Origin: Eledone cirrhosa | Taxonomy: Eukaryota | Length of the DNA: 64,000 nucleotides | Direction of reading: 5' to 3' | Assembly (NCBI GenBank): GCA_964016885.1 | Contig: OZ024743.1 | Span: forward strand, 30,194,001-30,258,000 | In this document: positions 1 to 64,000 of the stretch, piece after piece | How positions within the stretch are numbered: position 1 is the first letter of the stretch | How the letters are laid out: every line of letters begins with the position of its first letter | Translations under genes and position numbers: made by a program | The notes under the pieces: generated by a model | What the model was told of the DNA's origin: nothing | The model's input: only the letters and a program-made list of their open reading frames with translations | Database searches by the model: none

Positions 1-2551
1 GCACGCCCAGCCCTCCACGTAGCGGGTGTTGACACCAGATGGACCGCCTGACCATCGGAGCGCGTCCCTTCCACAAAAAGCGAAAGAGCAAACGCTCCAG
101 CGCAGTCAGGCGAGGCTTAGGACAAGGTACGACGGTCAGGCGGTAGTAGATGACAGACGCGATGTACGCATTAGCCACCTCCGCTCGACCATTCAGGGAT
201 AGCTTCCTCTCCGCCCATTTCTGGGTGAGAGAAGCCACCCTGCTCGTTACCTCGTCCCAGTTTTTGTCCGCCTGGAGGTCCGGACCGAACCAGACCCCTA
301 GCAATTTAACCGGTGCGTCCGTCCAGCGTCCGACGACGCTGTTGGACGGCATGGACCTGCCTCTCCAGGTGCCGAGCTGCAGGCCCATTGACTTTTCATG
401 GTTGATCATTGCTCCTGTCACCGCTTCGTATTCTCTTAGTGTAGTGCCGATCGCCTCGATGTGTTTTGCGTTCGACACCACTACGGTGACATCGTCTGCA
501 TATGCTGACACGGATCTTCCGCATCCTAGTTCGCGCGGGACGCCCCTCAACGTCTCCAGTTTGTGCAGTAATGGCTCGAGCGTCAATACGTACAAGAGGG
601 ACGAGAGGGGACATCCTTGGTGGACCGAGCGCATGATGTTGAACGGTTCCGACAGGTGACTGTTCACTCTCAACACAGAGCAGATGTCGCTGTGCATGGC
701 AGCGATCCAGCCTCTGAAGACGGGCCCAAAGCCAGTCGACCTCGGGACTGCCGCTAGGTAACGATGTTCGTCCCTATCGAAAGCTTTCGACAGATCTAAA
801 TTGATCAAGGACCCACCCGTGCCATATTCCCTAGCTACCCTCTCTACGATGTATCGCATGAGGTGGAGGTTGTCGTGGATGGATCTGTCGGCAATGGCGC
901 ATGTCTGCGCCTCTCCCACCAGACCACCAACGACAAGCGCCAACCTCTTTGCTAGCACCTTGGCCAAAATCTTGAACTCTGTGTTTAGCAGAGTTATGGG
1001 CCGGAAATTATCTATGTTATCCCCCTTGTTCGGATCCTTTCTCAGCAGTGCCACCGCACCTCGGCTCACAGAACTGGCAATTCTTCCGTTCTGTTGCCAG
1101 TTGCAGTAGACGTCCGCCAAGAGGCCTCCGAACAAGTCTGGCATTTATACGTAAAGTTCATAGGGCAGACCATCCAAAGCAGGCGATTTACCCCTTGTGC
1201 AGCCAGTCATTGCCTCCCTTACTTCAGCGGCTGTTATCGGCTTTTCGCAGCACTTCGCCTCAGTGGCCGAGAGCCGCGGCACTCCGTCGAGGTAGACACT
1301 AAAGTCCCTCCCTCGACCAGGCCCACCGCTACCCCCGAACAGCTGAGCGAAGTGTCGCTGAAAAGCTTCACACATTTGCCCGGGATCGAGTAGCATGCAC
1401 CCGTCGTTGTCCACCAAAGACCAGATCGTGGCTTTGTTGCCACGACGCGCCTCCGCCACTCGGGCCCATTGAACGGCTTTCGTCCCCTCGTGTCTGAGAG
1501 CACGCACCCTTGCTCTGACAACGCAGCCTTCGTGCTTTGCATTGAAGAATTGGTCAAGGGCCAATTTCGCTGCAAGCACGTCGGTCGCAATGCCTTTGCT
1601 AAGCGCCTCGTCTAATTTTCTAACTAGTTCTCCCTCTGCTCTATGTTTCTCTATTTCTAAAGCCTTACTAAACCTAATCGATTCTATTCTAATCGCTCTT
1701 TTCAGAGCAAACCACCACTTGTTGTTGATGGCCCCCGTCAACGCCCGCTTAACTAGTTCGCTAATCCGGTCTCTGTAGGCCTTGCGCGCTGGTAAGGACG
1801 CGTTTAGCTTCCAGTAGCCGGATCCTCGTCTATGAAGCCTATCTAAGTCAAGCACACAGATCTCGAATTTGTGGTCCGTGTAGCTGACTATCTTGAATTG
1901 TGGACAGCCTATGCTAGACCTATCTATTTCCCCACAGAATTCTCTATCTAGGTATGATCTGGATGACCCTATGCGATTTGTCCAAGTCCACATTGGCACA
2001 TTCTGGAAATCCAATCGGTACCTGTCAGACAGTTCAAAACGCCTGAGCAGGTTGCTGAAGCTCTTGCACCCTCCACCCCTATCCACTAATCCCACACAGT
2101 CCCAGCGTGCATCTAAGATCCCGTTCCAGTCGCCCACTAACACTAAAGAGCGGGACGTTCCAAGAAAGGTCTCCAGACGCCGGAAGAAATCAGGCCGCCC
2201 TGCTCCTCTCGGGGCATAGACGGCCACTAGCCTGAAATCTAACCTGTCTCCGCTGGTCACGTCCAGCACCACCAACTTACCCTCTGGGTCCAGGAAGACG
2301 GCTCGTATGGCGAGATCCAAACCTCTCCGAAAAAGCACAGCACTCCTTCCCCCCGATCCAGGACGGCTGGGTGATGCGTACACATCGTGGCCGCCGAAGA
2401 TCAGTGCGAAGGCCTGTGCTTCAGAGATTCTGGTCTCGCTGATGGCCACTACATCTATGTTTAGTGATCTGTGGGCGTTGAGCAGGTGACCCTGCTTCCA
2501 TGACGACCCCAAGCCACGCGCATTTATGCTGCCTATTCTGAGTGAGGTCAT
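1..2551 (-). pseudogene. ORF2 (APE endonuclease + RT) of copy A with premature stop
   Basis: MTSLRIGSINARGL, SETR, LVGDWN, YTDHK; TAA at 1145-1147 where copy B has CAG; AYADDV near 490-507. Confidence 0.93.
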
Positions 2552-2586
2552 ATTTAAAATAGAGTGGAAAAGATGGGAAAGACCAC

Positions 2587-4707
2587 TTACCGTACTTTTC
2601 GTAGAGGAGGGATGGTTTTTCCATCCATTTTCACTTGATCGTCTGGTGAAGGGACCGTTGAATCGTCCCTTCGGCTGGTCGTCGGCTCTTCTATGAGTAT
2701 GTCCGAATATATTCTTCGTTTGATAGTTCCTCCTAGGTCTCTGAAATCACCAACTGCGTTGGGGAATTTCGTTTTAATGTTTGTGTATTGTTTCTGTGCT
2801 ATTTTTAGCAGTCTTATGTTAGTTGGCGTTTTGATTGGTGCTGGTATTATGTAGTCGTGTTGTGAAATGTCTGTGTGTTCAATTATGTAAGTCATTAGTT
2901 TCTTGTTGTGTGTATTTATTGCCGTGCATTTGTTTTTCTGGGCGTGGGGTGTGGTTCTGCTATTTTCTTGTCGTTGTTGCTGGGTGTGTGTGTTTTGTTG
3001 TTGTGTTTTCGTTGTTGGTGCTTGTGGTGGTGGTGTTGAAGGTGTTTTTTGCGGTGGGGTTGTCGCCGGTGGTGATGGTGGTGCTAGTGTGGGTGGTGAT
3101 GGTGTTGGTGGTGTTGCTGCTGTGAGTCTCTTTGCAGTAGACTTTACCCTTTTTTCATTTCTTTCCTCCCTTTTCAAAGGCGACGATGCGCTGCTTCTGC
3201 GTTTGTGCCCTCTTACGACCTTTTGCCAACCCTCTCCCACCTCACACTCCATGTCTGATTCTGTGAGGTCGGGCAGGGCTAACAGCTCCTCTCTTTCACT
3301 TGTTGTTGTTGGTGATGTTTGCACTGGAGTCTCTGTTGCAGCTGCATTTGGTATTGCTGTTGTTGTTGTTAATACTTCCACTGCTGCTGCTGTTTCTGAT
3401 TCCCGTGGCATCGGTATGGGTGCCACGGACCTATCGTTACTGGTTGCTGCTTGTCCTGTTGCTGGTAGCCGTGGAGCCGGTTTCGGAAGGAGGGGGGTAT
3501 TCTGCTTTCTCAGGGTCTTCTCGTTGCAGAAGGCCCTGAGCTGAGTCTTCGATCCACAGCGAAAGCATTTCGGGCGTTTGCCCTCAACACTTATGGGCAG
3601 TTGAGTGCCGTTATCGACGTCTATCACAATCGGGATAGCTTCGATGCACTCCTGGTTGGTTTGGATTAACATCTCAATGGAGGTGCCGACCCAATCTTCT
3701 CTTACTTTTTTCTGTACTTGCAGTACAGTTGTTTTGTCCTCAATTCCGACGAGGACAGACGCGGCCAGCGAAGAAGGGGCCATCCCGGGGGGGGGGGGGG
3801 GGTCAGTTTGACCCTCACAGTAGGAGGGCACCAACACCATTTTCTCACTCCTTAGGGTCACTAAGGATTGAGACTTTGCCCCCTGGGGTGTGGCAAAAAG
3901 TACGTCTACGGTGGCATATTTCTTGCCTCGGGTGATGTGCGTTTTCTGCTTCCACACAAACCCCAAGGCTTTTTGTATTTGAGCCTCTGTGGCTCTTTCA
4001 GCCCTACGGGATTTTGTACTTACTGTACGGTACGTGACCGTACAGTGCTGTTGGGTTTCGAAAATTTTTTCCGCTGCCTTGCAGATTGCTCGGTGTCCGG
4101 TTTTTGTCACCATCTTCTTCGCTTCCTCTAATTCCTAATTTGTTATGAGGATGGTTTCCAGGTTCTTCGCGATACCTGCAAACGAGATTGGTTTTTCTTT
4201 GCTGCTGTTGTTGTTGTTGTTGTCGTCAGAGCTGCTGTTACTTTTGTTGTTGCTGCAGGTACTACGACTACTGCCGCCGCCGCTGTTGCTGTGGTTGTTG
4301 TTGTTGTTGCTGCTGCTAATGCTGTTGTTGTTTATGCTGCTGCTGATGCTGTTGTGGCTGCTACTGTTGTTTTCATTGTCACTGTTGCTGTTGTTATTAC
4401 GGCTGCTACTGCTATTATTCCTGACGTCTGACGAATGAAATGGGTTTTCGTATTTCCCGCACACCTGTTTCGTCGTTGTCGTCGTCGTTGTGGAGAAATC
4501 TTGCACGCTTTGCACGAGACTTTTCTTTTCTGTCGTCGCTTGCGAAAGAGAAAGGAGGGAGAGAGACACATTTAAAGAAGGGAGGGAGAGAGACACATTT
4601 AAAGAAGGGAGGGAGAGAGACAATCTTCTCTCTGCTGTAGTGACGATTGAGGAAGAAGAAGACGGAATGAGTGAGAGTGACCTATGAACATTCTTTTTCG
4701 TAGCCAT
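2587..4707 (-). pseudogene. ORF1 (gag-like, zinc knuckle) of copy A, disrupted
   Basis: TAG at 4135-4137 (GAG in copy B); ~14-nt deletion near 3818; knuckle CFRCGSKTQLRAFC (H->Q); extra 27-nt tandem unit (LSLPSLNVS). Confidence 0.88.
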
Positions 4708-4924
4708 GTTGTTTTTTTTTGTTTAAAATAAATATTGGGCACAAAACCACAATAAGCAGTTATTTAACCCCGAAGGGCCAAATAACGGGCAGAAAGACCC
4801 CTCTCACGAGGAGGAGGGTATTTTTGTCTACAAGTTGGTTAAAGTTTTAAACAATTTACAATTGTTATAGCGTTCAAAATTTACAATACCTTACAGAGCC
4901 CTGCCTCTGTCAACCATAGCATTC

Positions 4925-4956
<32 letters not shown>

Positions 4957-5073
4957 GATGATGATGATGATGATGATGATGTTGATGATGATGATGATGA
5001 TGATGATGGTGATGATGGTGATGATGATGATGATGATGATGATGATTATGATGATGATGATGATGATGATGAT
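4925..5073. repeat. (AAT)n + (ATG)n microsatellite at the 5' junction of copy A
   Basis: Direct reading. Confidence 0.95.
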
Positions 5074-16468: not shown

Positions 16469-18129
16469 TTAAAAAAAATCTCTTTTTGTACAGCCAACCA
16501 TGTTACTCTTCATTCTTTCACTATTATTACTCCAAGTATAACCTGCATAGGAATCACCGCGAACTCGTTGCATAACTATGAAAGCATCTTGTTGAGTCAA
16601 ACAAAACCGTACGTTAAAACTATCCACGACGCAGAGTACTCACAACCTCTAACTGGATTACCTATAACGATAACTTGTTATCCCATATGGAAAAGAATGA
16701 AACGAAATGTACACATACGTACATATATGTGTGTGCATGTATATATATATATATATGTACGTATGGGTGGTTTACAGAACATTTATTATAATGTTTGGTT
16801 TGTTTGTAAACAAACAGCCCGAATTACACCGTTCAATGCTCGGCAACCATCGTCGCCTTTTTGTTCAACACTGACACATGAACGATGTACTAGTTTCAAG
16901 CGTATTAGCTATCGTCAGCATCGTATACCTTTCTGTCAGATGATTGAACCTTTGAAAATATATACTCTCCTTATGCATATTAACGGCTGAGCAGCCTAAT
17001 TTGCATATCGAGTGAGTTAGTCGGCCGGCGCACCGAAAACGATAAATGGAAAAGAATGAAACGAAATTTTATTTCTCACTCTTAGTACGGCTGATACCTA
17101 ATTATAAGTATGTATACGTACATACATATATGTGTACAGACGTACAGTCGTATGTATATATATATACATGTACACATTCTTTTCCATTTATCGTTTTCGG
17201 TTACATACTATATATATATATATATATGTATATATAAGTGTTTGTGTTTTTAATGATGGTGATGATGATGATAATGATGATGATGATGATGAAGATAGGA
17301 AGGAGGATAATGATATTGAAATGATGATACTTATGCTCACGGCTTGGTGGTAATGACATGGCGGATTAGGCTAGGGAAGTTTCTGACGGTGGCAACGATG
17401 GGGATACTGAAGGTGCTGATTGTAAAGACACCAATCGAGTCTTTCGATTCACCGCCACGTAAGTCCATGTCGGTGTTTACAATAATTAAATTATTTGGCA
17501 TAGCGCATAAGAAAAATATTAATAATCTGGGATGTGTATGAAATAAGTTTATTGAGTTGACCAGTCATCTTAAGCTGTAATTTTCACAAAAAACTTCTTG
17601 TGCCTCGATTAATAATCAGCAAAGGTCTCTCAGTTTGCATATGTTTAAACACGACAATTGTGTCGGTGGAAACAAGATAATGGTTATATCTCAGTGCGGA
17701 ATTATCCCGAGAATACAGAAAATGCAGAGGGAATACGGTTCTACATGTTGTACTTTTCACAAGTGTCATATATTAACGTGAGTATTAGTGCTGGTAAATG
17801 TCAATAAGTAAGATGTTTGATTGTTTGATAGTTTCTTTCTTTCATTCTTTCTTCCTTTATTTATTTATTCATTTATATATGTATATATTTATTTATCATT
17901 ATCAAGCTGCGATAATTTATTTATCAGAAAGTGTTCTACCATTTTCAGTATGGATAAATTGCTATGGGGAAATGAGAGTAACTGTACTACAAGCAAAATT
18001 ATCAGTAATAATATATTAGCAAATATGGAGAATCCCAGTCATAGCAAGAAGGCAAGGATTGTTTAGATCCACATATATTGCCAAGAATATATAAATATAT
18101 AGTAGTGTGTGTGGGGGGGGGGGCGTGTG

Positions 18130-18215
<86 letters not shown>

Positions 18216-18385
18216 AAGAATTAATATCTAGTAACATATATATACATATGGATGCATATCAATGCTAGCAAATATATAGGTTTTGTCTTAGTAACTTTGT
18301 GGTTCAATGCATGGGGTTGCAGAACAATAATATGAGAGACGTAAAATAAGAAAATTATAAAATTAACTTACTTACTAAAATATCA

Positions 18386-18465
18386 CTTCCAACTAATTAG
18401 TTTCTGAAATGGAATAAATATACTTTCCGAAGAAAACACAGAGAATCATTTCGTCGTCAGGGAAG
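18386..18465 (-). ncRNA. Type I hammerhead ribozyme (523-bp family)
   Basis: CTTCC|CTGACGA|cGAAATG...CATTTCa|GAAAC TAATTA GTT|GGAAG. Confidence 0.8.
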
Positions 18466-19124
18466 ACTATTCTCATCTAAGTATCCAGGCAAAGCGTTGA
18501 CTCTGGAAACTTATTCAAAAATAATTCAGTGGAAAGAAAATAGCAAAGCGTGGACTGAATTCCTAGCCATTGAGAAAATCACTGTCTCTGCGTCGGTGGC
18601 AAATTCAAAAAGAATCAATCACGTGACATCGAGGTCAATCAGTGGAAAGTGGTTTGCTAATAAGACAGCGGCCTGCCTGCTACCATAGCAGTAGTCTTAG
18701 CCAATATTGCTCGACAAATAATTTGGAGATAATTATATTATTGTTCTGCAACCCCATGCATTGAACCACAAAGTTACTAAGACAAAACCTATATATTTGC
18801 TAGCATTGATATGCATCTATATGTATATATATGTTACTAGATATTAATTCTTTATAATTATCTCCAAATTATTTGTCGAGCAATATTGGCCAAGACTGCT
18901 GCTATGGTAGCAGGCAGGCCGCTGTCTTATTAGCAAACAACTTTCCACTGATTGACCTCGATGTCACGTGATTGATTCTTTTTGAATTTGCCACCGACGC
19001 AGAGACAGTGATTTTCTCAATGGCTAGGAATTCAGTCCACGCTTTGCTATTTTCTATCCACTGAATTATTTTTGAATAAGTTTCCAGAGTCCACGCTTTG
19101 CCTGGATACTTAGATGAGAATAGT

Positions 19125-19204
19125 CTTCCCTGACGACGAAATGATTCTCTATGTTTTCTTCGGAAAGTATATTTATTCCATTTCAGAAACTAATTAGTTG
19201 GAAG
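19125..19204 (+). ncRNA. Type I hammerhead ribozyme (523-bp family)
   Basis: Same fold; tttc-TTCG-gaaa hairpin inside loop II. Confidence 0.8.
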
Positions 19205-19647
19205 TGATATTTTAGTAAGTAAGTTAATTTTATAATTTTCTTATTTTACGTCTCTCATATTATTGTTCTGCAACCCCATGCATTGAACCACAAAGTTACT
19301 AAGACAAAACCTATATATATTGCTAGCATTGATATGCATCTATATGTATATATATGTTACTAGATATTAATTCTTTATAATTATCTCCAAATTATTTGTC
19401 GAGCAATATTGGCCAAGACTGCTGCTATGGTAGCAGGCAGGCCGCTGTCTTATTAGCAAACCACTTTCCACTGATTGACCTCGATGTCACGTGATTGATT
19501 CTTTTTGAATTTGCCACCGACGCAGATGCAGTGATTTTCTCAATGGCTAGGAATTCAGTCCACGCTTTGCTATTTTCTATCCACTGAATTATTTTTGAAT
19601 AAGTTTCCAGAGTCCACGCTTTGCCTGGATACTTAGATGAGAATAGC

Positions 19648-19727
19648 CTTCTCTGACGACGAAATGATTCTCTATGTTTTCTTTGGAAAGTATATTTATT
19701 CCATTTCAGAAACTATTTAGTTGGAAG
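19648..19727 (+). ncRNA. Type I hammerhead ribozyme (523-bp family)
   Basis: CTTCT|CTGACGA...GAAAC TATTTA GTT|GGAAG. Confidence 0.75.
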
Positions 19728-19777
19728 TGATATTTTAGTAAGTAAGTTAATTTTATAATTTTCTTATTTTACGTCTC

Positions 19778-19833
<56 letters not shown>

Positions 19834-20696
19834 CTATATAATATATATGTGGGTGCATGTGATATGTATACACTGGACATAGAGACACACACACATATAT
19901 ACCCAACTTTCAAACTACTCTGTCAAAACCACTATCCCTTTCTCTTTATCTTTCTCTCGCTTTGTTTATAAAGGTACCGGGAAAACCACATATCTCGGGA
20001 ACCCCTGGTCCGATGTCTACGAAACATGTTTTATTCCATTTGTATCCCCATTTCAGGACAACTTCCTGAGAAAGAATTTTCCCATTATGCACACTTTTGG
20101 CTGTATTACGTTACAGACAAGCAAGCAATCACAGACTTTTAGTATCATATAGATAAATCATACCTATTTTGTTGTATGTATTACCCTTGACTGCATTACT
20201 GATTCGCAAAAAAAGGTTTAGCATTTAAAAGCTGCTTGGAACAACATGTAATAAAGAATTTAGAACGACCCTACATATTATAATCTAAAATATATAGTGG
20301 AGCTCGAAATAACATAAATCATGTTGTGTCTAATGAGTCTTCACCATCCAAATTCTATTTTTATTGATGTAAATCAGAGACAGCGATTGCATATATAACC
20401 AAAACAATTACCATCGGTAGTTAAGGGAAAATACTTCATTTTGGAATACAAAACAATTTAAATATCGCTATTTCTGGATGAATATGAAACTAAGGTTTGA
20501 AAACTAAACAAACCATAACAGAACGTTCTAGTTTTCGTAGAGTAGTTTCATAATGCAGTTTTATGGTTGAGATTAGTACCATAATCGTAATGGGATGTAA
20601 CTAAATGAGACACAATTTTGTTTTCTATTGCATGTATCCTATGGCAGATTATGTTTATAGATACTGAAGCTAAAGAGAATGTTATCAAATATATAT

Positions 20697-28450: not shown

Positions 28451-31400
28451 TCCTTGAATCTCAGTCATTGATGTTGGTTAACTGGAAAGTCCGTTGGATT
28501 GAATATCAAGCTACTACCTGCAGCCTCAGATATTCAGGACGTATCGGAGGGTTCTTGCTGTTCCCAGCTAGCATGCCTTTTGAAGCGTTCCAAAAAGCGT
28601 GAAGGGGCCGATTTTCTTTAACCATCCCTGGAAACATTTGGAGATAGTCCCCAGTGCGCCTATGACGATCGGGATCACTTTGACTTCATGGCAGTTCCAA
28701 ATCCTTTTTACCTCCCACTTTAAGTCCTAGTATCGGTTAATTCAGACACGATCTTTTTTCTTTGTCCACAACTACCAGGTCAGGTCTATTGTGTTCCAAT
28801 TTCTTGTCCGTCTGTATCCTAAAATCCCACAGCACCTTCACCTGATCGTTCTCTATCACCGCCTCTGGCTTATGCTCATACCATTTCTCAGAATGTGGTA
28901 AATTGTTTACTTTGCACAGGTGCCAGTGGATCACCCTGCCCATCACATCATGTCTCCAGCCCTTATAGTGGGTCTGGGCTAAGTGTTTACACTCGGATAC
29001 AATGTGAGCCACAGTCTCCTCTCTCTCTCCACAGATCATGCACAGTGGGCTAGCCTCCTCCTTGTAAATATGGTGTTTCAACCACTTCGTTTTGAGGGCC
29101 TGCTCCTGCGCAGCCATTAACATTCCTTCTGTAGCCTTTTTAAGGTCTTCTCTTCTCAACCAGTTCCATGTCTGTGGATCTCTAAATTCAGTTTTCTCAA
29201 AGAAGGTGCTATGAAGGGATTTTTCCTGAAGACTGCTCTTTCTCCTTGATGTTATTTCCTCCTTGGACATCCCCTGGCCTATTGTCCCCTATTCAGTACA
29301 GTTCTGAGCATTGGCTCCTTACTATCAGTCACGTATTTGTGTAGATTGTTTTTCTCCATCTGAACACAGTCCTCTATGCTGATAAGACCTCTTCCACCCT
29401 CAGATCCCATTAAGTAGAGTCTATGGACATCACTCCTCTTGTGGAACATGTTGTAGATAGTCAATAGCTTCCTAGTCTACCTATCCATTTCTTTTTGTTC
29501 AGAAACATTCCATCTCAGAATTCCCGCACTGTACCTAATAATAGACACAGCTCGGGAATTTACTGCGCTTATGGCATTTCTGCTGTTCAGATGTGACTTC
29601 AATACGCTCCTTACTCTCCGTATGTATTCAGTTCTTAACAATTCCTTCATTTTTTTGTTCTTTATGCCATCTGCCTCCAGAACGCCCAAATACTTGTATC
29701 CTTCCACAGAGTCAATTTCCTTTATCATCTCACCTGTTGCTATCTGGATTCCGTTACTTCTGCTCAACCTACCCCTCCTCATCACAATGACTCCACACTT
29801 ACTAATACCAAATTGCATACATATATCATTGCTGAAAATACGGACAGTGTCAACAAGCACATCCAATTCCTTCTCACTCTTCCCGAAGAGCTTAAGATCG
29901 TCCATGAAGAGGAGGTGATTGATGGTAAGCCCTCCCTTTCCCAACCTGTATCCTGCTCTCACTTTTCGCAGTACACTGGTCAGGGGCATCAGGGGAAGGA
30001 CAAACAACAGAGGGGACAGGCTATCTCCCTGGAAGATACCTCTCTTGATCTTCACGCTTCCCAAGGATTCTCCAGTTGATGTCAACTCTGTTTCCCAGGA
30101 CCTCATACTTTTGCCCAACAACTGTCTGTTGTTATCTAGCACCTTCAAGATCTCCAGGTTTTTGGTGATCCAATAATGAGGCACCATGTCAAATGCCTTT
30201 CTGTAGTCTATCCATCCCATGGCAAGATCAGTGTGTCTCCTCCTGCAAGTCCCCATTACCATCTTATCAATAAGTAACTGGTCCTTTGTACCACGTGACT
30301 TCTTTCGGCATCCTTTCTGTTCGTCCGGTAACAAGTTGTTTGTGTGGAGGTGATGGTAGATTTCCTCAGACACAATGCTCATCAACAGTTTCCACATTAC
30401 GGACAGACATGTGATAGGTCTATAGTTGGTAACATCATTACCCTTGATTCGGTCTTTCATTATCAGAACTGTGGTACCTTTTGTCAACCACTCTGGTACC
30501 TCACCTGACATCAAGCAGTCATTGAACATGGTTGTCAGTTTCGGGTGGAGGGATGTTATATTTTTAATCCAATACACCTGCACACCACCTGGGCCTGGTG
30601 ATTTCCAGTTGGTTAGTTTTTTCGCCTGCCCCTTAAGAGTTTCAACTGTGATACTCAAATCAGTTTGTTGGTGTGCCTGTTCACCGATCTCCTTCTGTAC
30701 TGTCTCAATCCGCACTGCCTGGTCATTATGTCTAACATCCTGCTCCCATATTCCTCTCCAGAATGTTTTAGTTTGTTCCGAACCAGGGATCAAGTCGTTG
30801 CCTCTTTCTTTCCTCTCAAGCTGTGCAAACAGCATATTCTGGTTGTTGTCGAACATGCTGTTCTGTTTATACTGACTGACTCTGTTCTCGTATCGCCTGA
30901 TTTTTGCACTCTTTGCTACAATGCGTTGCTTCAGTTCCTCTATGATAATATTTAGCTTTTTCCTCCTAGTTTTGTACTTTATTTCCAGTCTATTTTTAGT
31001 GTCTATGTTTTTTAGTGTCCCATTCAGTAGTGACTCAAGCTTTCCAATGTCATTTCTCATTTCCCTGATTTGACCACTCAGTCGTTTCTTCCACCAAGGC
31101 TCTGCTCTTTCTTGTCTGTTGTTTCCTCTCGCTTTCATACCAAGTAGTTTCCTCACCGTATTTGCTGTTGCTTTGAGGATATTGTTGCACTGGTGAAGGC
31201 TCCTCGCCTCAAGGTATGGGATGACTTTGTTTACCTTAGCTGTTGTTTCTTTTAACTTTTACCTGTCTACAAATCTTAGGTTCATAGGTCTCCCACTATC
31301 ATTGTTCAATTCATCTACCACTAAATTTAGGATGTCAACCAAATCTTGTCCTAGCCCGTCAGCATTCATCTCCTCAGTGGCCGTATCTCTGTTCCAGGTA

Positions 31401-33900: not shown

Positions 33901-34056
33901 ATTATTATTCTTACTATTATTATTATTGCCTTTCATCCTTACGGGGTCGATAAAATAAATTACTAGTAATGCAATGGGGTAATTGCTGGCCTTGTGCCAA
34001 ACGTAGAAACATTTATTATTATTATTATTTTTATTATTATTATTATTATTATTATA

Positions 34057-34089
<33 letters not shown>
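33687..34089 (+). repeat. (CTT)n/(ATT)n tract fused to SINE 3' half (33928-34011), then (ATT)n
   Basis: gcctttcatccttacggggtcgataaaataa...ggccttgtgccaaacgtagaaac. Confidence 0.85.
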
Positions 34090-34302
34090 GAATGCCATGG
34101 TTGACGGAGGCTCGGCTCTGTAAGGTATAGTAATTTTTAACCGTTAAAACAATTGTAAATTGTTTAAAACTTGAACCAAATTGTTGATAAAGACACCCTC
34201 CTCCTCGTGAGAGGGGTCTTTCTGTCCGTTATTTGGCCCTTCGGGGTTAAATAACCAGTTATTGGGGTTTTGTACCCAAAATTTCATTTTAAACAAAAAA
34301 AC

Positions 34303-36707
34303 ATGGCTACGAAAAAGAAATTTCATACGTCACTCCCACTCATTCCGTCTTCTTCTTCCTCAATCATCACTACAGCAGAGAGAAGATTGTCTCTCTCCCT
34401 CCCTTCTTTAAATGTGTCTCTCTCCCTCCCTTCTCTTTCGCAAGCGACGAAAGAAAAGAAAAGTCTCGTGCAAAGCGTGCAAGGTTTCTCCACGACGACG
34501 ACGACAGCGACGAAACAGGTGTGCGGGAAATACGAAAACCCAGTTCATTCGTCTGACGTCAGGAATAATAGCAGTAGCAGCCGTAATAACAACAGCAACA
34601 GTGACAATGAAAACAACAGTAGCAGCCGCAACAGCATCACCAGCAGCATAAACAACAACAGCATTAGCAGCAGCAACACCAACAACAACCACAGCAACAG
34701 CGGCGGAGGCAGTAGTCGTAGTACCTGCAGCAACAACAAAAGTACCAGCAGCTCTGACGACAACAACAACAGCAGAGAAAAACCAATCTCATTTGCAGGT
34801 ATTGCGAAAAACTTGGAAACAATCCTCATAACAAATGAGGAATTAGAGGAAGCGAAGAAGATGGTGACAAAGAACGGACACCGAGCAATCTGCAAGGCAG
34901 CGAAAAATTTTTTCGAAACCCAAGAGCACTGTACGGTCACGTACCGTACAGTAAGTACAAAATCCCGTAGGGTGGAAAGAGCCACAGAGGCCCAAATACA
35001 AAAAGCCTTGGGGTCTGTGTGGCAGCGGAAAACGCACATCACCCGAGGCAAAAAATATGCCACCGTAGACGTACTTTTTGCCACACCCCAGGAGGCAAAG
35101 GCCCAATCAGTAGTGACCCTAAGGAGCGAGGAAATGGTGTTGGTGCCCTCCTACTGTGGGCAAAAAATTGTGAGGGTCAAACTGACCCACGTCCCCCCCG
35201 GAATGACCCCTTCTTGGCTGGCCGCGTCTGTCCTCGTCGGAATCGAGGACAAAACAACTGTACTGCAAGTACAGAAAAAAGTAAGAGAAATTGGGTCGGC
35301 TCCTCCATTGAGATGCTAATCCAAACCAACCAGGAGTGCATCGAAGCTATCCCGGATGTGATAGACTTCGATAACGGCACTCAACTGCCCATAAGTGTTG
35401 AGGGCAAACGCCCGAAATGCTTTCGCTGTGGATCGAAGACTCACCTCAGGGCCTTCTGCAACGAGAAGACCCTGAGAAAGGAGAAAACCCCCCTCCTTCC
35501 GAATCCGGCTCCACGGCTACCAGCAACAGGACAAGCGGCAACCAGGAACGATAGGCCCGTGGCACCCATACCCACTCCACGGAAATCAAAAACAGCAGCA
35601 GCAGTGGAAATACTAACAACAACAACAGCAATACCAAATGCAGCTGCAACAGAGACTCCAGTGCAAACATCACCAACAACAACAAGTGAAAGAGTGGAGT
35701 TGGTACCCCTCCCCGACCTCACAGAATCAGACATGGAGTGTGAGGTGGGAGAGAGATGGCAAAAGGTCGTAAGAAGGCACAAACGCAGAAGCAGCGCATC
35801 GTCGCCTTTGAAAAGGGAGGAAAGAAATGAGAAAAGGGTAAAGTCTACTGCAAAGAGACCCACAGCAGCAACAACACCAACACCATCACCACCCACACTA
35901 GCGCCACCATCACCACCGGCGACAACCCCACCGCCAACAACACCTTCAACACCACCACCACAAGCACCAACATCGCAAACACAACAACAAAACACACACA
36001 CCCAGCAACAACGACAAGAAAATAGCAGAACCACACCCCACCCCCAGAAAAACAAATGCACGTCAATAAATACACACAACAAGAAACTAATGACTTACAT
36101 AATTGAACACACAGACATTTCACAACAGGACTACATAATACCAGCACCAATCAAAACGCCAACTAACATAAGACTGCTAAAAATAGCACAGAAACAATAC
36201 ATAAATATTAAAACGAAATTCCCCAACGCAGTTGGTGATTTCAGGGACCTAGGAGGAACCATCTATCGAAGAGTATACTCAGACATTCTCTTAGAAGAGC
36301 CGACGACCAGCCGAAGGGACGATTCAACGGTCCCTTCACCAGACGATCAAGTGAAAAGGGATGTAAAACCATCCCTCCTCTACCAAAAGTACGGTAAGTG
36401 GTCTTTCCCATCTTTTCCACTCTATTTTAAACATGACCTCACTCAGAATAGGCAGCATAAATGCGCGTGGCTTGGGGTCGTCATGGAAGCAGGGTCACCT
36501 GCTCAACGACCTCAGGTCACTAAACATAGATGTAGTGGCCATCAGCGAGACCAGAATGTCCGAAGCACGGGCCTTCGCACCGATCTTCGGCGGCTACGAT
36601 GTGTACGCATCTCCCAGCCGTCCGGGATCCGGTGGAGGAGTTGCTGTACTTTTTCGGAGAGGTTTGGATCTCGCCATACGGGCCATCTTCCTGGACCCAG
36701 AGGGTAA
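34303..36707 (+). pseudogene. ORF1 of copy B (gag-like, CX2CX4HX4C knuckle), 1-nt frameshift near 35290; true stop uncertain (36397 or 36707)
   Basis: gtaagagaa-attggg vs gtaagagaagattggg in copy A; KCFRCGSKTHLRAFC; S/N-rich and P/T-rich tracts. Confidence 0.85.
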
Positions 36708-39700
36708 GCTGGTGGTGCTGGACGTGACCAGCGGAGACGGGCAAGCTTTCAGGCTAGTGGCCGTCTATGCCCCGACAGGAGCAGGGCGGCCTGATTTCTT
36801 CCGGCGTCTGGAGACCTTTCTTGGAACGTCGCGCTCTTTAGTGTTAGTGGGCGACTGGAACGGGATCTTAGATGCACGCTGGGACTGTGTGGGATTAGCG
36901 GATAGGGGTGGAGGGTGCAAGAGCCTCACCAACCTGCTCAGGCGTTTTGAACTGTCTGACAGGTACCGATTGGATTTCCCGAATGTGCCAATGTGGACTT
37001 GGACAAACCGCATAGGGTCATCCAGATCATATCTAGATAGAGTATTTTGTAGGGAAATAGATAGGTCTAGCATAGGCTGTCCACAATTCAAGATAGTCAG
37101 CTACACGGACCACAAATTCGTGATCTGTGTGCTTGACTTAGATAGGCTTCATAGACGAGGACCCGGCTACTGGAAGCTAAACGCGTCCTTACCAGCGCGC
37201 AAGGCCTACAGAGACCGGATTAGCGAACTAGTTAAGCGGGCGTTGACGGGGGCCATCGTCAACAACAAGTGGTGGTTTGCTCTGAAAAGAGCGATTAGAA
37301 TAGAATCGATTAGATTTAGTAAGGCTTTAGCAATAGAGAAAAATAGAGCAGAGGGAGAACTAGTTAGAAAATTAGACGAGGCGCTTAGCAAAGGCATTGC
37401 GACCGACGTGCTTGCGGCGAAATTGGCCCTTGACCAATTCTTCAATGCAAAGCACGAAGGCTGCGTTGTCAGAGCAAGGGTGCGTGCTCTCAGACACGAG
37501 GGGACGAAAGCCGTTCAATGGGCCCGAGTGGCGGAGGCGCGTCGTGGCAACAAAGCCACGATCCGGTCTTTGGTGGACCACGACGGGCGCATGCTACTCG
37601 ATCCCGGGCAAATGTGTGAAGCTTTTCAGCGACACTTCGCTCAGCTGTTCGGGGGCAGCGGTGGGCCGGGTAGAGGGATGGACTTTAGTGTCTACCTCGA
37701 CGGACTGCCGCGGCTCTCGGCCACTGAGGCGAAGTGTTGCGAAAAGCCGATAACAGCCGCTGAAGTAAGGGAGGCAATGACTGGCTGCACAAGGGGTAAA
37801 TCGCCTGGTTTGGATGGTCTGCCCTATGAACTTTACGTACAGATGCCAGACTTGTTCGGAGGCCTCTTGGCGGACGTCTACTGCAACTGGCAACAGAACG
37901 GGAGAATTCCCAGTTCTGTGAGCCGAGGAGCGGTGGCACTGCTGAGAAAGGATCCGAACAAGGGGGATAACATAGACAATTTCCGGCCCATAACTCTGCT
38001 AAACACAGAGTTTAAGATTTTGGCCAAGGTGCTAGCAAAGAGGTTGGCGCTTGTCGTTGGTGGTCTGGTGGGAGAGGCGCAGACATGCGCCATTCCCGAC
38101 AGATCCATCCACGACAACCTCCACCTCATGCGATACATCGTAGAGAGGGTATCTAGGGAACCTGGCACGGGTGGGTCCTTGATCAATTTAGATCAGTCGA
38201 AAGCTTTCGATAGGGTCGACCATCGTTACCTAGCGGCAGTCCTGAGGGCGGCTAGCTTTGGGCCCGTCTTCAGAGGATGGATCGCTGCCATGCACAGCGA
38301 CATCTGCTCTGTAGTGAGAGTGAACGGTCACCTGTCGGAACCGTTCAACATCATGCGCTCGGTCCGCCAAGGATGTCCCCTCTCGTCCCTCTTGTACGTA
38401 TTGACTCTCGAGCCATTACTGCACAAACTGGAGACGTTGAGGGGAGTCCCGCGCGAACTAGGATGCGGAAGATCCGTGTCAGCATATGCGGACGATGTCA
38501 CCGTAGTGGTGTCGAACGCCAAACACATCGAGGCGATCGGCACTACACTAAGAGAATACGAAGCGGTGACAGGAGCAATGATCAACCAGGAAAAGTCAGT
38601 GGGCCTGCAGCTCGGCACCTGGAGAGGCAGGTCCATGCCGTCCAACAGCGTCGTCGGGCGCTGGACGGACGGACCGGTTAAATTGCTAGGGGTCTGGTTC
38701 GGTCCGGACCTCCAGACGGACAAAAACTGGGACGAGGTGACGAGCAGGGTGGCTTCTCTCACCCAGAAATGGGCGGAGAGGAAGCTATCCCTGAAAGGTC
38801 GAGCGGAGGTGGCTAACGCGTACATCGCGTCTGTCATCTGCTACCGCCTAACCGTCGTACCTTGTCCTAAGCCTCGCCTGACTGCGCTGGAGCGTTTGCT
38901 CTTTCGCTTTTTGTGGAAGGGACGTGCTCCGATGGTCAGGCGGTCCATCTGTTGTCAACACCCGCTACGTGGAGGGCTGGGCATGCCGTGGCTGATGATG
39001 CGCAGGCACGCGCTCAGGCTACGACATCTCCACCTCTTCCTCGACGGTGATCAGGTGTGGTCGCCGTTTGCTAGACGCGTTTTTCCCCAGCTCGTTTCCT
39101 TGACGGAGCTGCAGTCCTGGGTCAAGCGAAGACCGAGAGGGAGCGCCTGGAGACTGGAATGTCTTCAGGCGCTCACAGCCCTCGACCAATCGGGCAATGT
39201 GATCGGTGGAAACTCCACCTCGGCGTTCTATAGAGGATTAGTGGAGGGGAAGAGCGACGACGTACTTGGGGAAACTCTAGGCGTCGACGAAAATCAACTA
39301 GCCAATCTCTTCGGAAGAACTTTCGGGCCAGGGCCTATGGACAACTTCCAGAAATCTCTGGCCTGGCAGTGCTACCGAGGAGCCTTGCCAGTTCGGGATA
39401 AACTCTACAGGCATGGAGGTGCCGTCAGCCGGGCATGTCCGAGATGCGCGCAGGGCGACGAAACCGTCCTGCACGCACTCGTCCAGTGTCCGAAAATTGC
39501 TGACTTGTGGGTTTATGTCGAACACCTGCTGTCGCGTTTAGGACGGATCCAGCTATCATCTGAGTCTATCGTGAGGATTGCCCCGCCCTCCTCCTTTAGC
39601 CGGGAAGGGCAGGCAGTTTTTATCTGTCTGGTGGCCATGGCGAAAGAGATAGTATGGTGGACACGTTTGAAAGGGCTGAAGACGAGCACTTACCTCTTCG

Positions 39701-39852
39701 GTGATGCTCTGATTGACTTTTTCAAATTTCATTTGAAAAGGAAAATCAGAGTAGAGAAGGAAGTGCTCTCTTCCCAGCATTTTGTTGAAAGATGGGTGAG
39801 AGAAGCAAGAATGGCCCGAGTGAATGGGCCGACTCTGAGTATATATCTGTAA
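36433..39852 (+). CDS. ORF2: APE endonuclease, reverse transcriptase, C-terminal CCHC (1139 aa, uninterrupted)
   Basis: SINARGL, SET, GDWN, YLDRV, TDH; NFRPITLLN, DQSKAFDRVDH, VRQGCPLS, AYADDV, LLGV; CPRCAQGDETVLHALVQC. Confidence 0.97.
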   Translation: MTSLRIGSINARGLGSSWKQGHLLNDLRSLNIDVVAISETRMSEARAFAPIFGGYDVYASPSRPGSGGGVAVLFRRGLDLAIRAIFLDPEGKLVVLDVTSGDGQAFRLVAVYAPTGAGRPDFFRRLETFLGTSRSLVLVGDWNGILDARWDCVGLADRGGGCKSLTNLLRRFELSDRYRLDFPNVPMWTWTNRIGSSRSYLDRVFCREIDRSSIGCPQFKIVSYTDHKFVICVLDLDRLHRRGPGYWKLNASLPARKAYRDRISELVKRALTGAIVNNKWWFALKRAIRIESIRFSKALAIEKNRAEGELVRKLDEALSKGIATDVLAAKLALDQFFNAKHEGCVVRARVRALRHEGTKAVQWARVAEARRGNKATIRSLVDHDGRMLLDPGQMCEAFQRHFAQLFGGSGGPGRGMDFSVYLDGLPRLSATEAKCCEKPITAAEVREAMTGCTRGKSPGLDGLPYELYVQMPDLFGGLLADVYCNWQQNGRIPSSVSRGAVALLRKDPNKGDNIDNFRPITLLNTEFKILAKVLAKRLALVVGGLVGEAQTCAIPDRSIHDNLHLMRYIVERVSREPGTGGSLINLDQSKAFDRVDHRYLAAVLRAASFGPVFRGWIAAMHSDICSVVRVNGHLSEPFNIMRSVRQGCPLSSLLYVLTLEPLLHKLETLRGVPRELGCGRSVSAYADDVTVVVSNAKHIEAIGTTLREYEAVTGAMINQEKSVGLQLGTWRGRSMPSNSVVGRWTDGPVKLLGVWFGPDLQTDKNWDEVTSRVASLTQKWAERKLSLKGRAEVANAYIASVICYRLTVVPCPKPRLTALERLLFRFLWKGRAPMVRRSICCQHPLRGGLGMPWLMMRRHALRLRHLHLFLDGDQVWSPFARRVFPQLVSLTELQSWVKRRPRGSAWRLECLQALTALDQSGNVIGGNSTSAFYRGLVEGKSDDVLGETLGVDENQLANLFGRTFGPGPMDNFQKSLAWQCYRGALPVRDKLYRHGGAVSRACPRCAQGDETVLHALVQCPKIADLWVYVEHLLSRLGRIQLSSESIVRIAPPSSFSREGQAVFICLVAMAKEIVWWTRLKGLKTSTYLFGDALIDFFKFHLKRKIRVEKEVLSSQHFVERWVREARMARVNGPTLSIYL

Positions 39853-50240: not shown

Positions 50241-51351
<1,111 letters not shown>

Positions 51352-55284: not shown

Positions 55285-55418
55285 ATACATACATTTACAC
55301 ACTCATATATATGTATATATATATAAATGTGTGTGTTTATGTATTTATGTATATATATGTATATATGAAAGACGTACAATAAGAGTATTATGAAAATTGA
55401 CTTACTTACTAAAATTTC

Positions 55419-55499
55419 ACTCCAACTAATTAGTTTCTGTAAGGGAATAAATATGGTTACGTAACGTAATCATAGAGAATCATTACGTCATCAGGGAGT
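55419..55499 (-). ncRNA. Type I hammerhead ribozyme (523-bp family)
   Basis: ACTCC|CTGATGA|cGTAATG...CCTTACa|GAAAC TAATTA GTT|GGAGT. Confidence 0.78.
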
Positions 55500-55844
55500 C
55501 TATTCTCAGCTAAGTTCCTAGGCAATGCGTGGACACTGGGAACTCATATAAAAATAATTCAGTGGATTGAAAAAAGCGAGCGGGGACTAAATTCGAGGAC
55601 ATTGAAAACAATCTACTATGGTTCATGGTAGTGGCCAGGCTCCTGTCTTAATAGCATTCCACTCCTCACTGATTAAACTCAGTGTCTCGTGATTGATTAT
55701 TTTGAATTTGCCACTGACAAAGTAGGCAGTGAATTTTTTCAATGTCCTGGAATTTAGTCCCCGCTCGCTTTTTTCCATCCACTGAATTATTTTTATATGA
55801 GTTCTCCGTGTCAACGCATTGCCTAGGAACTTAGCTGAGAATAG

Positions 55845-55925
55845 ACTCCCTGATGACGTAAGGATTCTCTATGATTACGTTACGTAACCATATTTATTCC
55901 CTTACAGAAACTAATTAGTTGGAGT
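55845..55925 (+). ncRNA. Type I hammerhead ribozyme (523-bp family)
   Basis: ACTCC|CTGATGA|cGTAAGG...CCTTACa|GAAAC TAATTA GTT|GGAGT. Confidence 0.82.
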
Positions 55926-56269
55926 GAAATTATAGTAAGTAAGTCAATTTCCATAATTCTCTTATTTTACGTCTTTTATATAATTGTTCTGCATCCCCTT
56001 GCATTGAACTACAAAGTTACTAAGACAAAACCTATATATTTGCTAGCATAGGTATGCATCTGTATACATATGTTGGTAGATATACTAATTCTTCATAATT
56101 ATCTCCAAATTATTTGTTGAGTAAAAATTTGCCAAAATTACTACTAATAAGATATAATAATTCCTTATATATGTATATATACATATATGTATATATATTA
56201 ATATATGATAGTTTATATACAATAAACATACGGTAGCCTTGCTATAATGAAAAAACAAACTGTTCGTAA

Positions 56270-62296: not shown

Positions 62297-62819
62297 GAAA
62301 AAGTCAATCTGTGAACGCAGAACTAATTGCTCTACAGTTCTTATATATCTGATATATATTTATCCTTATCGAGCCCTATTTGGATTTTAGTTTTCAAATT
62401 TATTATTATTACTATATATATATATATATATACGATATTAATAAATGGAAACTATATTTATAAAGCCATATTTATTTCATTATACATATTTCAGGGATAC
62501 CAAATTAAATTATGGTATCCCTTCATCAGACAAAATACAATATATAACAGTTTTACAAATAAGCTTTGACGTACCCTATTAAAATGCAACCATTGTTTTT
62601 GGAAGTCATTATTTTGGAAGCGAAAAGCGAAAACCAACCAAACAGTGAGTGTGTTCTGTTATTAATGCTGGCAATATTACACAAATATGACCCTCCCCAA
62701 GTATAACAATATTTTTTTCGACACACGATTTCATATAAAAAACCTAGCAAAACTAATTCATCGCCGTTATGGCATTAGCTAGTGCCAAGCTGAAAGGTTA
62801 TTGAAAGACGCTGTTTTCT

Positions 62820-64000
62820 GTTATATAAAAACTACAATAACAACATAACAAATCCGTTTCTTAAAACACTGTGTTTCCTCCAAAATATACACAACAAACA
62901 TATCAAAACAAGTAAATAATTTATTATTGAACAAAGCACAAGCTGAACGACTAAAACACACAATAACAGTTAATATGAAAAGAACAACATACAGAAAAGT
63001 CAACGAACTTCTACAGACAGAAACGCATTAACGGTAAGGAAGTCCAAAATCTCACCACACCAAACGAAAGGAATGACTTCATGAGCGTCATCCGACGTGA
63101 AACGAAATACGCCCGAAACGAATGCAATAGGCATTTCAATAAGAAATTAGAATGGATGAATAAGAAAAAACTACAAGAAAGGGAAATAGAATATTCTCAA
63201 AAATACCCAGATAACATCAACAATATCCGTATGACTGATGTAAAACTACCGGAAGAATTTACCAATGACCACACAGTAAATATTTATGGGAACACTTTAA
63301 TCAGTGAACAAGAACAACATATCCTGCAACTACCACCAAAATTTGCCATCTACAAAAAGATTAACCCTATTGAGTGCAAAACGGAGCTGGAAAAGTGTTT
63401 CACAAAAATACGTTGGAATGCAAAAGTAAACAACAACAACAACAATAATAACGGTAGTAGTAATATAAACAATAACTCTGAGTATAGAAATAACAGCCAT
63501 AACAATAACAATAGCAGGAGAGTGAGAAATAGTAATAATGGTAATAATACTAACGATAGACAGAACAACAACAACAACCACAATAATAATAATAATAATA
63601 GAAACATTAACCACAGACATAGCAGATGCGACCACAGTAGTAATAACGGTAACAATACGAACAACAACAACAACAACAACCACAGTGGAAATAATGGAAA
63701 TAATACATGTAGCAACATTAATGATAGACACAACAAAAACAAGAAACATGATAAAAGTAACAACCACAATGGTATAAATAACAGTAACAACAACAATAAC
63801 GGTGAAGTAAACAACAATCACAGCAGCAACAATACATCTAGCAATCATAACAATAATAATAATGCTAATTATAGGAACAACAACAACCACCATAATAACA
63901 ATAATAGCAACACACACAACTATGACGATAGATATAATGACAACCCCTTAGAGAAACTATTTTTCAACCCAGCTGACAAAACATATAAGCTGGGAAATAT
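62820..64000 (+). mobile_element. Penelope-like element ORF N-terminus with Asn-rich insert; runs off the window end
   Basis: QIRFLKHCVSSKIY..., frameshift near 63000-63030, then open to 64000 (ATG 63081): ISEQEQHILQLPPKFAIYKKINPIECKTELEKCFTKIRW + ~170 N-rich codons + NPLEKLFFNPADKTYKLGN. Confidence 0.65.

Follow-up and report, generated by a model that had tools for sequence, protein, structure and literature searches.

The 522-bp hammerhead repeat of Eledone cirrhosa described here is most probably (at roughly 85%) a non-autonomous Penelope-like element (PLE) of the non-LTR retrozyme kind, whose RNA, exceeding one unit in length, would be copied in trans by the reverse transcriptase-endonuclease of a PLE. 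The observed basis for this reading comprises the sequence itself, over 12,000 copies of the ribozyme in the genome, the ends of the insertions, their (TA)n target, their inversions, covariation in the RNA and the lack of an adjoining open reading frame (ORF). The original prediction of a retrozyme family moved by a Penelope reverse transcriptase (RT) is thus supported as regards a non-autonomous hammerhead family, loci free of ORFs (0 of 59 run into one), an integration signature of the PLE type (a short and a tailed end paired at 38 of 48 loci) and covariation; the partner PLE we infer rather than identify.

Insertions in the window and extent of the family

The window, i.e., the whole 64,000-nt stretch that was analysed, contains three insertions of the family. 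The first (18212-19780) lies between two (TA)n target microsatellites, the left one at 18130-18215 and the right one at 19780-19848, and consists of an inverted arm (18212-18737, minus strand; unit positions 119-522 followed by 1-122) and a direct arm (18735-19780, plus strand) of two head-to-tail units (18735-19256 and 19257-19779). The direct arm has a short 3′ end, and the inverted arm has a tailed 3′ end at 18212, with a 122-nt tail (18212-18333, minus strand) that would be the stretch between both presumed reverse-transcription start points, in the sense given to such a tail in the available text of PMC11167929. The second insertion (50739-51255), also between (TA)n runs and 88-92% identical to the first, has a minus arm with a short end (50743-51204) and a short plus arm with a tailed end (51197-51255), and the third (55367-56146; 80-86% identity), of an older subfamily, has a minus arm at 55367-55613 and a plus arm at 55625-56146. 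A structure scan found six type I hammerhead folds at these three loci, just as had been predicted: 18385-18466 (minus), 19124-19205 (plus) and 19647-19728 (plus) in the first insertion, 50794-50876 (minus) in the second, and 55418-55500 (minus) and 55844-55926 (plus) in the third. The period, put at about 523 bp beforehand, proved to be 522 nt (the second unit measures 523), and the unit does hold a single hammerhead and no ATG-initiated ORF of at least 35 aa; TRF was blind to this unit, its period limit being 500. All units are arranged solely head to tail, and the LTR-retrozyme layout, a unique region between two LTRs, is absent. The palindrome GTCACGTGAT at 18963-18972, which most of 21 monomers retain and which we take to be E-box-like, is possibly a candidate internal promoter element. 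Also present in the window are an L1-like LINE (34033-39852, plus) whose 1161-aa ORF2, with EN, RT and zinc finger, is intact, a broken copy of it that is 94% identical (1-4980, minus) and another LINE family with a 593-aa RT frame (29477-31258, minus).

When the 3.0-Gb genome was searched with a 19-nt piece of the ribozyme, 12,089 exact matches were obtained, against none for a reversed-pattern control, so the recurrence of the ribozyme is not a product of chance. Two subfamily queries gave 1,726 and 2,958 first-look candidates, of which 40 and 38 were scored, the best scored copies for the first query reaching 96-100% identity. Loci were sampled from the first 100 of the 12,089 matches (59 position-ordered loci on contig C1) and from two sets of 30 best hits, which after merging left 110 non-overlapping loci. 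Their pieces are 69-97% identical to the window unit, with one young, 98%-identical subfamily, and monomers measured from cut to cut (n = 69) span 513-571 nt, except for one of 471. There are also two satellite-like arrays, at 18.416-18.465 Mb of contig C9 (at least 91 units over at least 48 kb) and at 84.689-84.727 Mb of contig C5 (at least 70 units over at least 37 kb, with matches reaching back to 84.648 Mb), the counts being lower bounds as the left ends of the arrays were not reached. Array units are about 4% apart, and both core motifs are exact in only 29 of the 91 units on C9 and 18 of the 70 on C5. Local amplification therefore also happens in these long arrays. In a separate case, a 57-nt end fragment of the unit together with flanking (TA)n has been amplified four times as a minisatellite (L226-L229, contig C21, 5.68 Mb).

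The hammerhead and the fold around it

In the ribozyme, a stem I of 5 bp is followed by CUGAnGA, an extra C, a stem II of 6 bp (with G10.1-C11.1) whose loop of roughly 37 nt contains a hairpin of its own, and then by an extra A, GAAA, a 3-bp stem III set within a 12-nt palindrome, and U17. With a CUGAnGA and GAAA core, three stems and an open stem I, this is a type I hammerhead, for which cleavage is predicted after GUU, between 19199 and 19200 in the second copy. The core motifs CUGAnGA and GAAAC, previously called invariant, are near-constant genome-wide: CUGAnGAC was recognisable at 204 of the 232 ribozyme sites in the 110 loci, and among these 204 sites CTAATTAG is present at 190 and UU at positions 16.1/17 at 199, the constancy of stem III being partly selected since the sites were located via its motif. 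The C.A mismatch proposed to close stem II is seen as a C and an A flanking the stem at 200 of the 204 sites, and the stem II variants GAAATG/CATTTC, GGAATG/CATTCC and GTAAGG/CCTTAC were borne out. Stem I, which was also said to covary, in fact differs between subfamilies by a paired one-base insertion or deletion (ACTTCC/GGAAGT versus ACTCC/GGAGT) and by C-to-U changes that give wobbles. Loop III reads TAATTA in five of the six window copies, as claimed; the sixth, at 19647, has TATTTA, which breaks the palindrome, as well as a stem I wobble, and is likely decayed. The palindrome extends beyond TAATTA to 12 nt, AACTAATTAGTT, at 19188-19199 in the second copy (plus strand), where it is predicted to pair between copies, the duplex of 19187-19200 amounting to -13.0 kcal/mol.

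No hammerhead was among the 109 Rfam matches listed at E ≤ 1, likely because of the long loop II. The minimum-energy fold predicted for single ribozyme copies is not the active hammerhead, and two copies together are predicted to gain about 12 kcal/mol, in the young subfamily via the palindrome. The ribozyme, with its U17, extra bases on both sides of stem II and a stem III of 3 bp, is expected to cleave slowly and to be most active when dimeric, so that most templates would stay uncut.

Base changes were followed in 36 ribozyme copies picked below 95% identity and in 21 monomers. In the former, 99% of stem II cells are paired, pair 45:95 occurs in all four Watson-Crick forms and pair 48:92 in two, and in the loop II hairpin five of seven pairs show change on both sides. 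Outside the ribozyme, 65 pairs are predicted in the monomers, with 96.6% of cells paired as against 33-42% when the alignment was slid, and ten of the 65 are compensatory, with both sides changed. The counts of pairs with two-sided change are no higher than in shuffles (200/500 for the ribozyme, 145/500 outside it), and they come from related sequences, uncorrected for relatedness, with structures derived from those very alignments. The claim of stem covariation is upheld in the form of compensatory changes in stem II, in the loop II hairpin and in helices beyond the ribozyme, kinship uncorrected. One such helix, formed by 19295-19306 with 19446-19457 (plus strand; 2 of 10 pairs compensatory), spans the tail end at about 19379; a template RNA containing it would need to extend beyond the two 3′ ends, in keeping with the demands of internal initiation.

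Arm ends, (TA)n targets and Penelope-like elements

Among the 163 arms at the 110 loci, 78 have the short end followed by (TA)n, 70 have the tail followed by (TA)n and 15 end otherwise, so that 148 of the 163 end in (TA)n at either of two points. The short 3′ end lies 57 nt past the predicted cut in the numbering of the young subfamily and the tailed end about 122 nt further; 3′ ends are fixed at these two points and 5′ ends are variable. Target-site duplications are unreadable within (TA)n. Of 48 two-armed inverted loci, 38 pair a short with a tailed end, the combination of two tails occurs once and that of two short ends never, and nine are unclassified; in the position-ordered set the pairing is found at 17 of 20 such loci, and none has two ends alike. 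By a hand calculation, the chance of 38 versus one would be near 1e-10 if the ends were independent. This anatomy matches the published PLE signature, in which (TA)n is the target, tandems are partial, a 5′-truncated copy lies in inverse orientation and one end bears a tail (PMC8557442, in the text available), and in the available part of PMC11167929 two internal RT starts define the tail and both strands are extended.

It had been proposed that copies start at different points of one circular unit. The different starts are real, but they result from variable 5′ truncation behind two fixed 3′ ends rather than from random opening of a circle. Given these fixed ends, and long linear arrays as a possible source of multimers, a circle cannot be argued from the seeming permutation. 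Within single insertions, the units and both arms mostly share lineage-diagnostic variants and, in 10 of 12 multi-unit loci, are 0.2-2.4% apart, the two exceptions being a long array and a nested pair of subfamilies. This likeness would fit one source RNA, circular or multimeric.

Near the predicted cut, 5′ ends of arms are unevenly spread. Their density is 0.29 per 100 nt overall and five times that in the 22 nt past the cut. This 0-21 nt bin, one of 16, holds 8 of the 82 ends where 1.6 would be expected (Poisson P 2e-4) and, for hit-selected loci, 10 of 50 where 3.6 would be. A second bin, near the 5′ side of the ribozyme (13 versus 5.5), holds a probable duplicate and is not significant after correction. 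Genome-wide patterns of the young subfamily peak at +14 (15 true ends, 13 of them distinct) and +15 (10; a pattern open to (TA)n junctions, unlike most others), with 2 ends and one jump at +0, 5 at -4, 3 at +4, 3 at +19 and 6 at +26; the +10 pattern was left out as its 77 matches were swamped by point mutants. The notion that arm ends mark the cut was consequently rejected, there being no excess exactly at the cut. The peak coincides with a conserved GTAAGT (19215-19220, plus strand), which stands at the foot of a possible extended stem I and which, as we assume, resembles the splice donor consensus; no conserved 3′ splice site precedes stem I. Stalling at the stem fold, use of the splice donor or trimming after cleavage may account for the peak. 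Of the arms that reach the cut, roughly two in three read through it. One insertion lacks 80 nt, the gap ending exactly at the predicted cut (the insertion is duplicated three times in the assembly and represents a single event), and such an edge would result if the template jump started from a cleaved end, which is suggestive of cleavage there.

At none of the 59 position-ordered loci does the unit lead, through a shared junction, into an ORF, so it is not an ordinary pLTR. PLE fragments are found in the flanks of 17 of the 59, apart from the unit, except that L196 touches it. Contacts with the two tested PLE families are shared (TA)n runs, save for the junctions of L002/L009 and L196, which are compatible with later insertion. 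A template switch at L196, where a Hydra-like copy is joined to unit position 198, was not counted, as a later insertion with deletion fits equally well. An nhmmer search with a profile of the 21 monomers against 75 PLE and 30 GIY-YIG loci returned no autonomous PLE resembling the unit: within these 105 loci, sampled from a genome with many further PLE families, the matches were solely inserted copies of the family, and the next best had an E value of 0.16. Young PLEs that target (TA)n and bear tails are abundant in the genome. Compared as candidate partners, the PLE at the end of the window, the Hydra-like PLE and the Neptune-like GIY-YIG loci have the (TA)n target in common with the unit and no significant likeness in sequence; a 13-nt match between the short end of the unit and the Hydra-like 3′ UTR was noted by eye only.

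The PLE at the window end (62979-64000, plus strand, continuing as L031 1979-4925) is a broken, 3′-truncated Penelope-like ORF with an Asn-rich insertion, from a family with 15,387 first-look candidates and a 1176-aa open frame in L092. The Hydra-like PLE (L102-L131, e.g., L116 241-2379, plus strand) is very young, with a 713-aa frame, 83,499 first-look candidates, 96-98% identity among scored copies and a tail of 86-90 nt; its motifs match those in the accessible text of PMC8557442, and in nearly all of 30 copies its hammerhead-like motif has CAGAAGA in place of CUGAnGA. Neptune-like PLEs (L253-L282) carry a variant hammerhead core, UUGAUAA (U3-A8), in the 3′ UTR, and covariation of U3-A8 was reported earlier (PMC4209133, available text). 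Two other families of hammerhead repeats were seen at 62475-62535 and 16882-16924 of the window (both minus) and at L031 7824-8292 and L093 9114-9624, the second of them with CTAG as stem III and in pairs spaced by 426-468 nt, and more retrozyme-like families are likely in this genome.

Template RNA, rival explanations and known systems

The sequence of events favored here would begin with the transcription of tandem copies to an RNA exceeding one unit. A PLE protein would then bind a folded part of the unit and nick both strands of a (TA)n run, one nick priming 57 nt past the predicted cut and the other about 122 nt further, which would give one short and one tailed arm. Synthesis of each cDNA would break off after some hundreds of nt, in many cases having passed through the ribozyme, and the cDNAs would join head to head or to the target.

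That the template must be a monomeric RNA circle, which the hammerhead would form by cleavage and ligation and the PLE RT would copy round, is quite possible, at somewhat under even odds. Arms pass the cut site with no visible scar and contain two to four ribozymes in 53 of 162 cases, plus one long array; the units of a single insertion are near-identical (the 10 of 12 loci above), eight monomers folded as circles beat their shuffles (z from -2.2 to -7.2; 25 shuffles each), the 80-nt gap has its edge at the cut, and retrozymes of coral, mussel and axolotl form circles according to the available text of PMC7229834. Every one of the DNA patterns, however, also fits an uncut multimer from tandem loci such as the arrays of at least 70 and at least 91 units, a possible source of long linear RNA, although the cores of most ribozymes in them have changed; folding stability is no sign of circularity, and the exact-cut deletion is one event, duplicated. 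A lizard PLE in vitro, moreover, mainly used unprocessed RNA, with cleavage dispensable (PMC11167929, available text). A more elaborate proposal, in which a structured circular RNA of 520-570 nt is the replicating form and is primed by a dimer of PLE protein from both strands of the target, at two different fixed sites, one per strand, is tentative and rather doubtful at present.

Three other readings are much less probable. Copies of an autonomous PLE are mostly 5′-truncated, with the same ends and inversions (PMC8557442, in its available part), and PLE fragments do lie in the flanks of 17 of the 59 loci, so the unit might be the terminal repeat left behind in such debris; but no ORF separates the units, which repeat head to tail perfectly, none of the 59 continues into an ORF at a shared junction, and the contacts with two PLE families are through shared (TA)n or, at L002/L009 and L196, fit later insertion. 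As an account of over 95% of the copies this is unlikely, and we would give it little weight. A satellite spread by DNA-level amplification and recombination, its ribozyme vestigial, would suit the arrays of at least 48 kb (C9) and at least 37 kb (C5), with units about 4% apart and most core motifs decayed; it is very improbable for a family of dispersed insertions of one to four units whose 3′ ends are fixed at two points, whose 5′ ends are random and whose arms follow the short/tail pairing, and with RNA-type compensatory changes, including G-U wobbles, across subfamilies. Least probable of all, and barely credible, is that L1-type or RTE-type LINEs of the genome mobilise the unit as a SINE-like element. 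The window does hold LINE ORFs with EN and RT domains, and L1 twin priming also yields inversions, but twin priming splits one RNA into non-overlapping parts, whereas here the 3′ end is present on both arms, there is no poly(A) end, and there are two internal 3′ ends with a tail.

A repeat of about 500 bp, going by the name, is known from the cricket as pDo500. It is likewise a satellite repeat with a hammerhead, compared by description alone (PMC2837043, as available). The closest class is that of the metazoan non-LTR retrozymes (Cervera and de la Peña 2020, PMC7229834), which in the text available are GC-poor, non-coding tandem repeats of animals, present in thousands of copies and bearing a single type I hammerhead in each unit, and for which coexisting PLEs were proposed as mobiliser; their units are about 170-400 nt versus 513-571 bp here, their circular RNA has been demonstrated and that of the 522-bp family is a possibility, the present ribozyme is non-canonical, and fixed ends, tail and inversions are not reported for them there. 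A 2026 preprint treats retrozymes as non-autonomous PLE derivatives (Li, Clavereau, Pollet, bioRxiv 10.64898/2026.07.22.740005); as far as its available text goes, these also have dispersed monomers and clustered multimers, lengths of 51-972 bp and a proposed PLE origin, 24 of 57 Xenopus families are tied by sequence to known elements, one of nine dimers cleaved in vitro and no mollusc is sampled. It suggests local amplification, whereas here no parent pLTR was found and the insertion anatomy points to dispersal by PLE-type priming.

The hammerheads of PLE pLTRs (Cervera and de la Peña 2014, PMC4209133, available text) share the long helix II, the 5-bp helix I, an extra base after A9 (between 9 and 10.1), G10.1-C11.1 and a small palindromic helix III with a predicted dimer; those of the present family differ in the extra A between C11.1 and G12, in U17, in the covarying hairpin within a loop II of roughly 37 nt and in flanking no ORF. 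The insertions of Hydra, Neptune and Naiad elements and of the Chlamys non-autonomous PLEs such as MRC1 (Craig et al. 2021, PMC8557442, in part) are likewise targeted to microsatellites, with copies head to tail, a truncated copy in inverted orientation and a one-sided tail, but the tail is about 122 nt here versus 30-40 bp, the hammerhead core is canonical, and there is no 3′ likeness to an autonomous family in the 105 loci searched. In Poseidon PAc of Anolis (Frangieh et al. 2024, PMC11167929), too, two internal RT starts lie downstream of the hammerhead, targets are AT-rich and RNA is required 3′ of the start; that element is autonomous, with adjacent starts and, in the available text, no strand difference in vitro, whereas the insertions here indicate two starts paired one per target strand in vivo.

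The retrozyme class and its PLE link are already published (PMC7229834; bioRxiv 10.64898/2026.07.22.740005; PMC8557442, each in its available text), and what is new is the family itself, with its non-canonical ribozyme, its long tail and unusually clear evidence of PLE-type dispersal. Neither a description of this family nor any cephalopod hammerhead or retrozyme family came up in the literature searched; Repbase, supplements and subscription papers, outside that scope, may hold this one. The family bears on how animal retrozymes move and on what the PLE hammerhead is for. A full PLE integration signature on an ORF-free retrozyme favors dispersal by PLE priming over local amplification alone, and the near-strict pairing of short and tailed ends constrains how both cDNAs start. 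With some 12,000 copies, a young subfamily, two mapped starts and covarying helices, it offers a compact substrate for the question of circle versus multimer. If the replicating form were indeed circular and primed in this way, a single step would produce the tail asymmetry, the inversions and the tandem units alike. The family would then serve through every stage of PLE integration as a minimal RNA substrate, itself protein-free, and how much circle there is relative to multimer would be governed by its slow hammerhead, dependent on dimers and with a hairpin that covaries in loop II.
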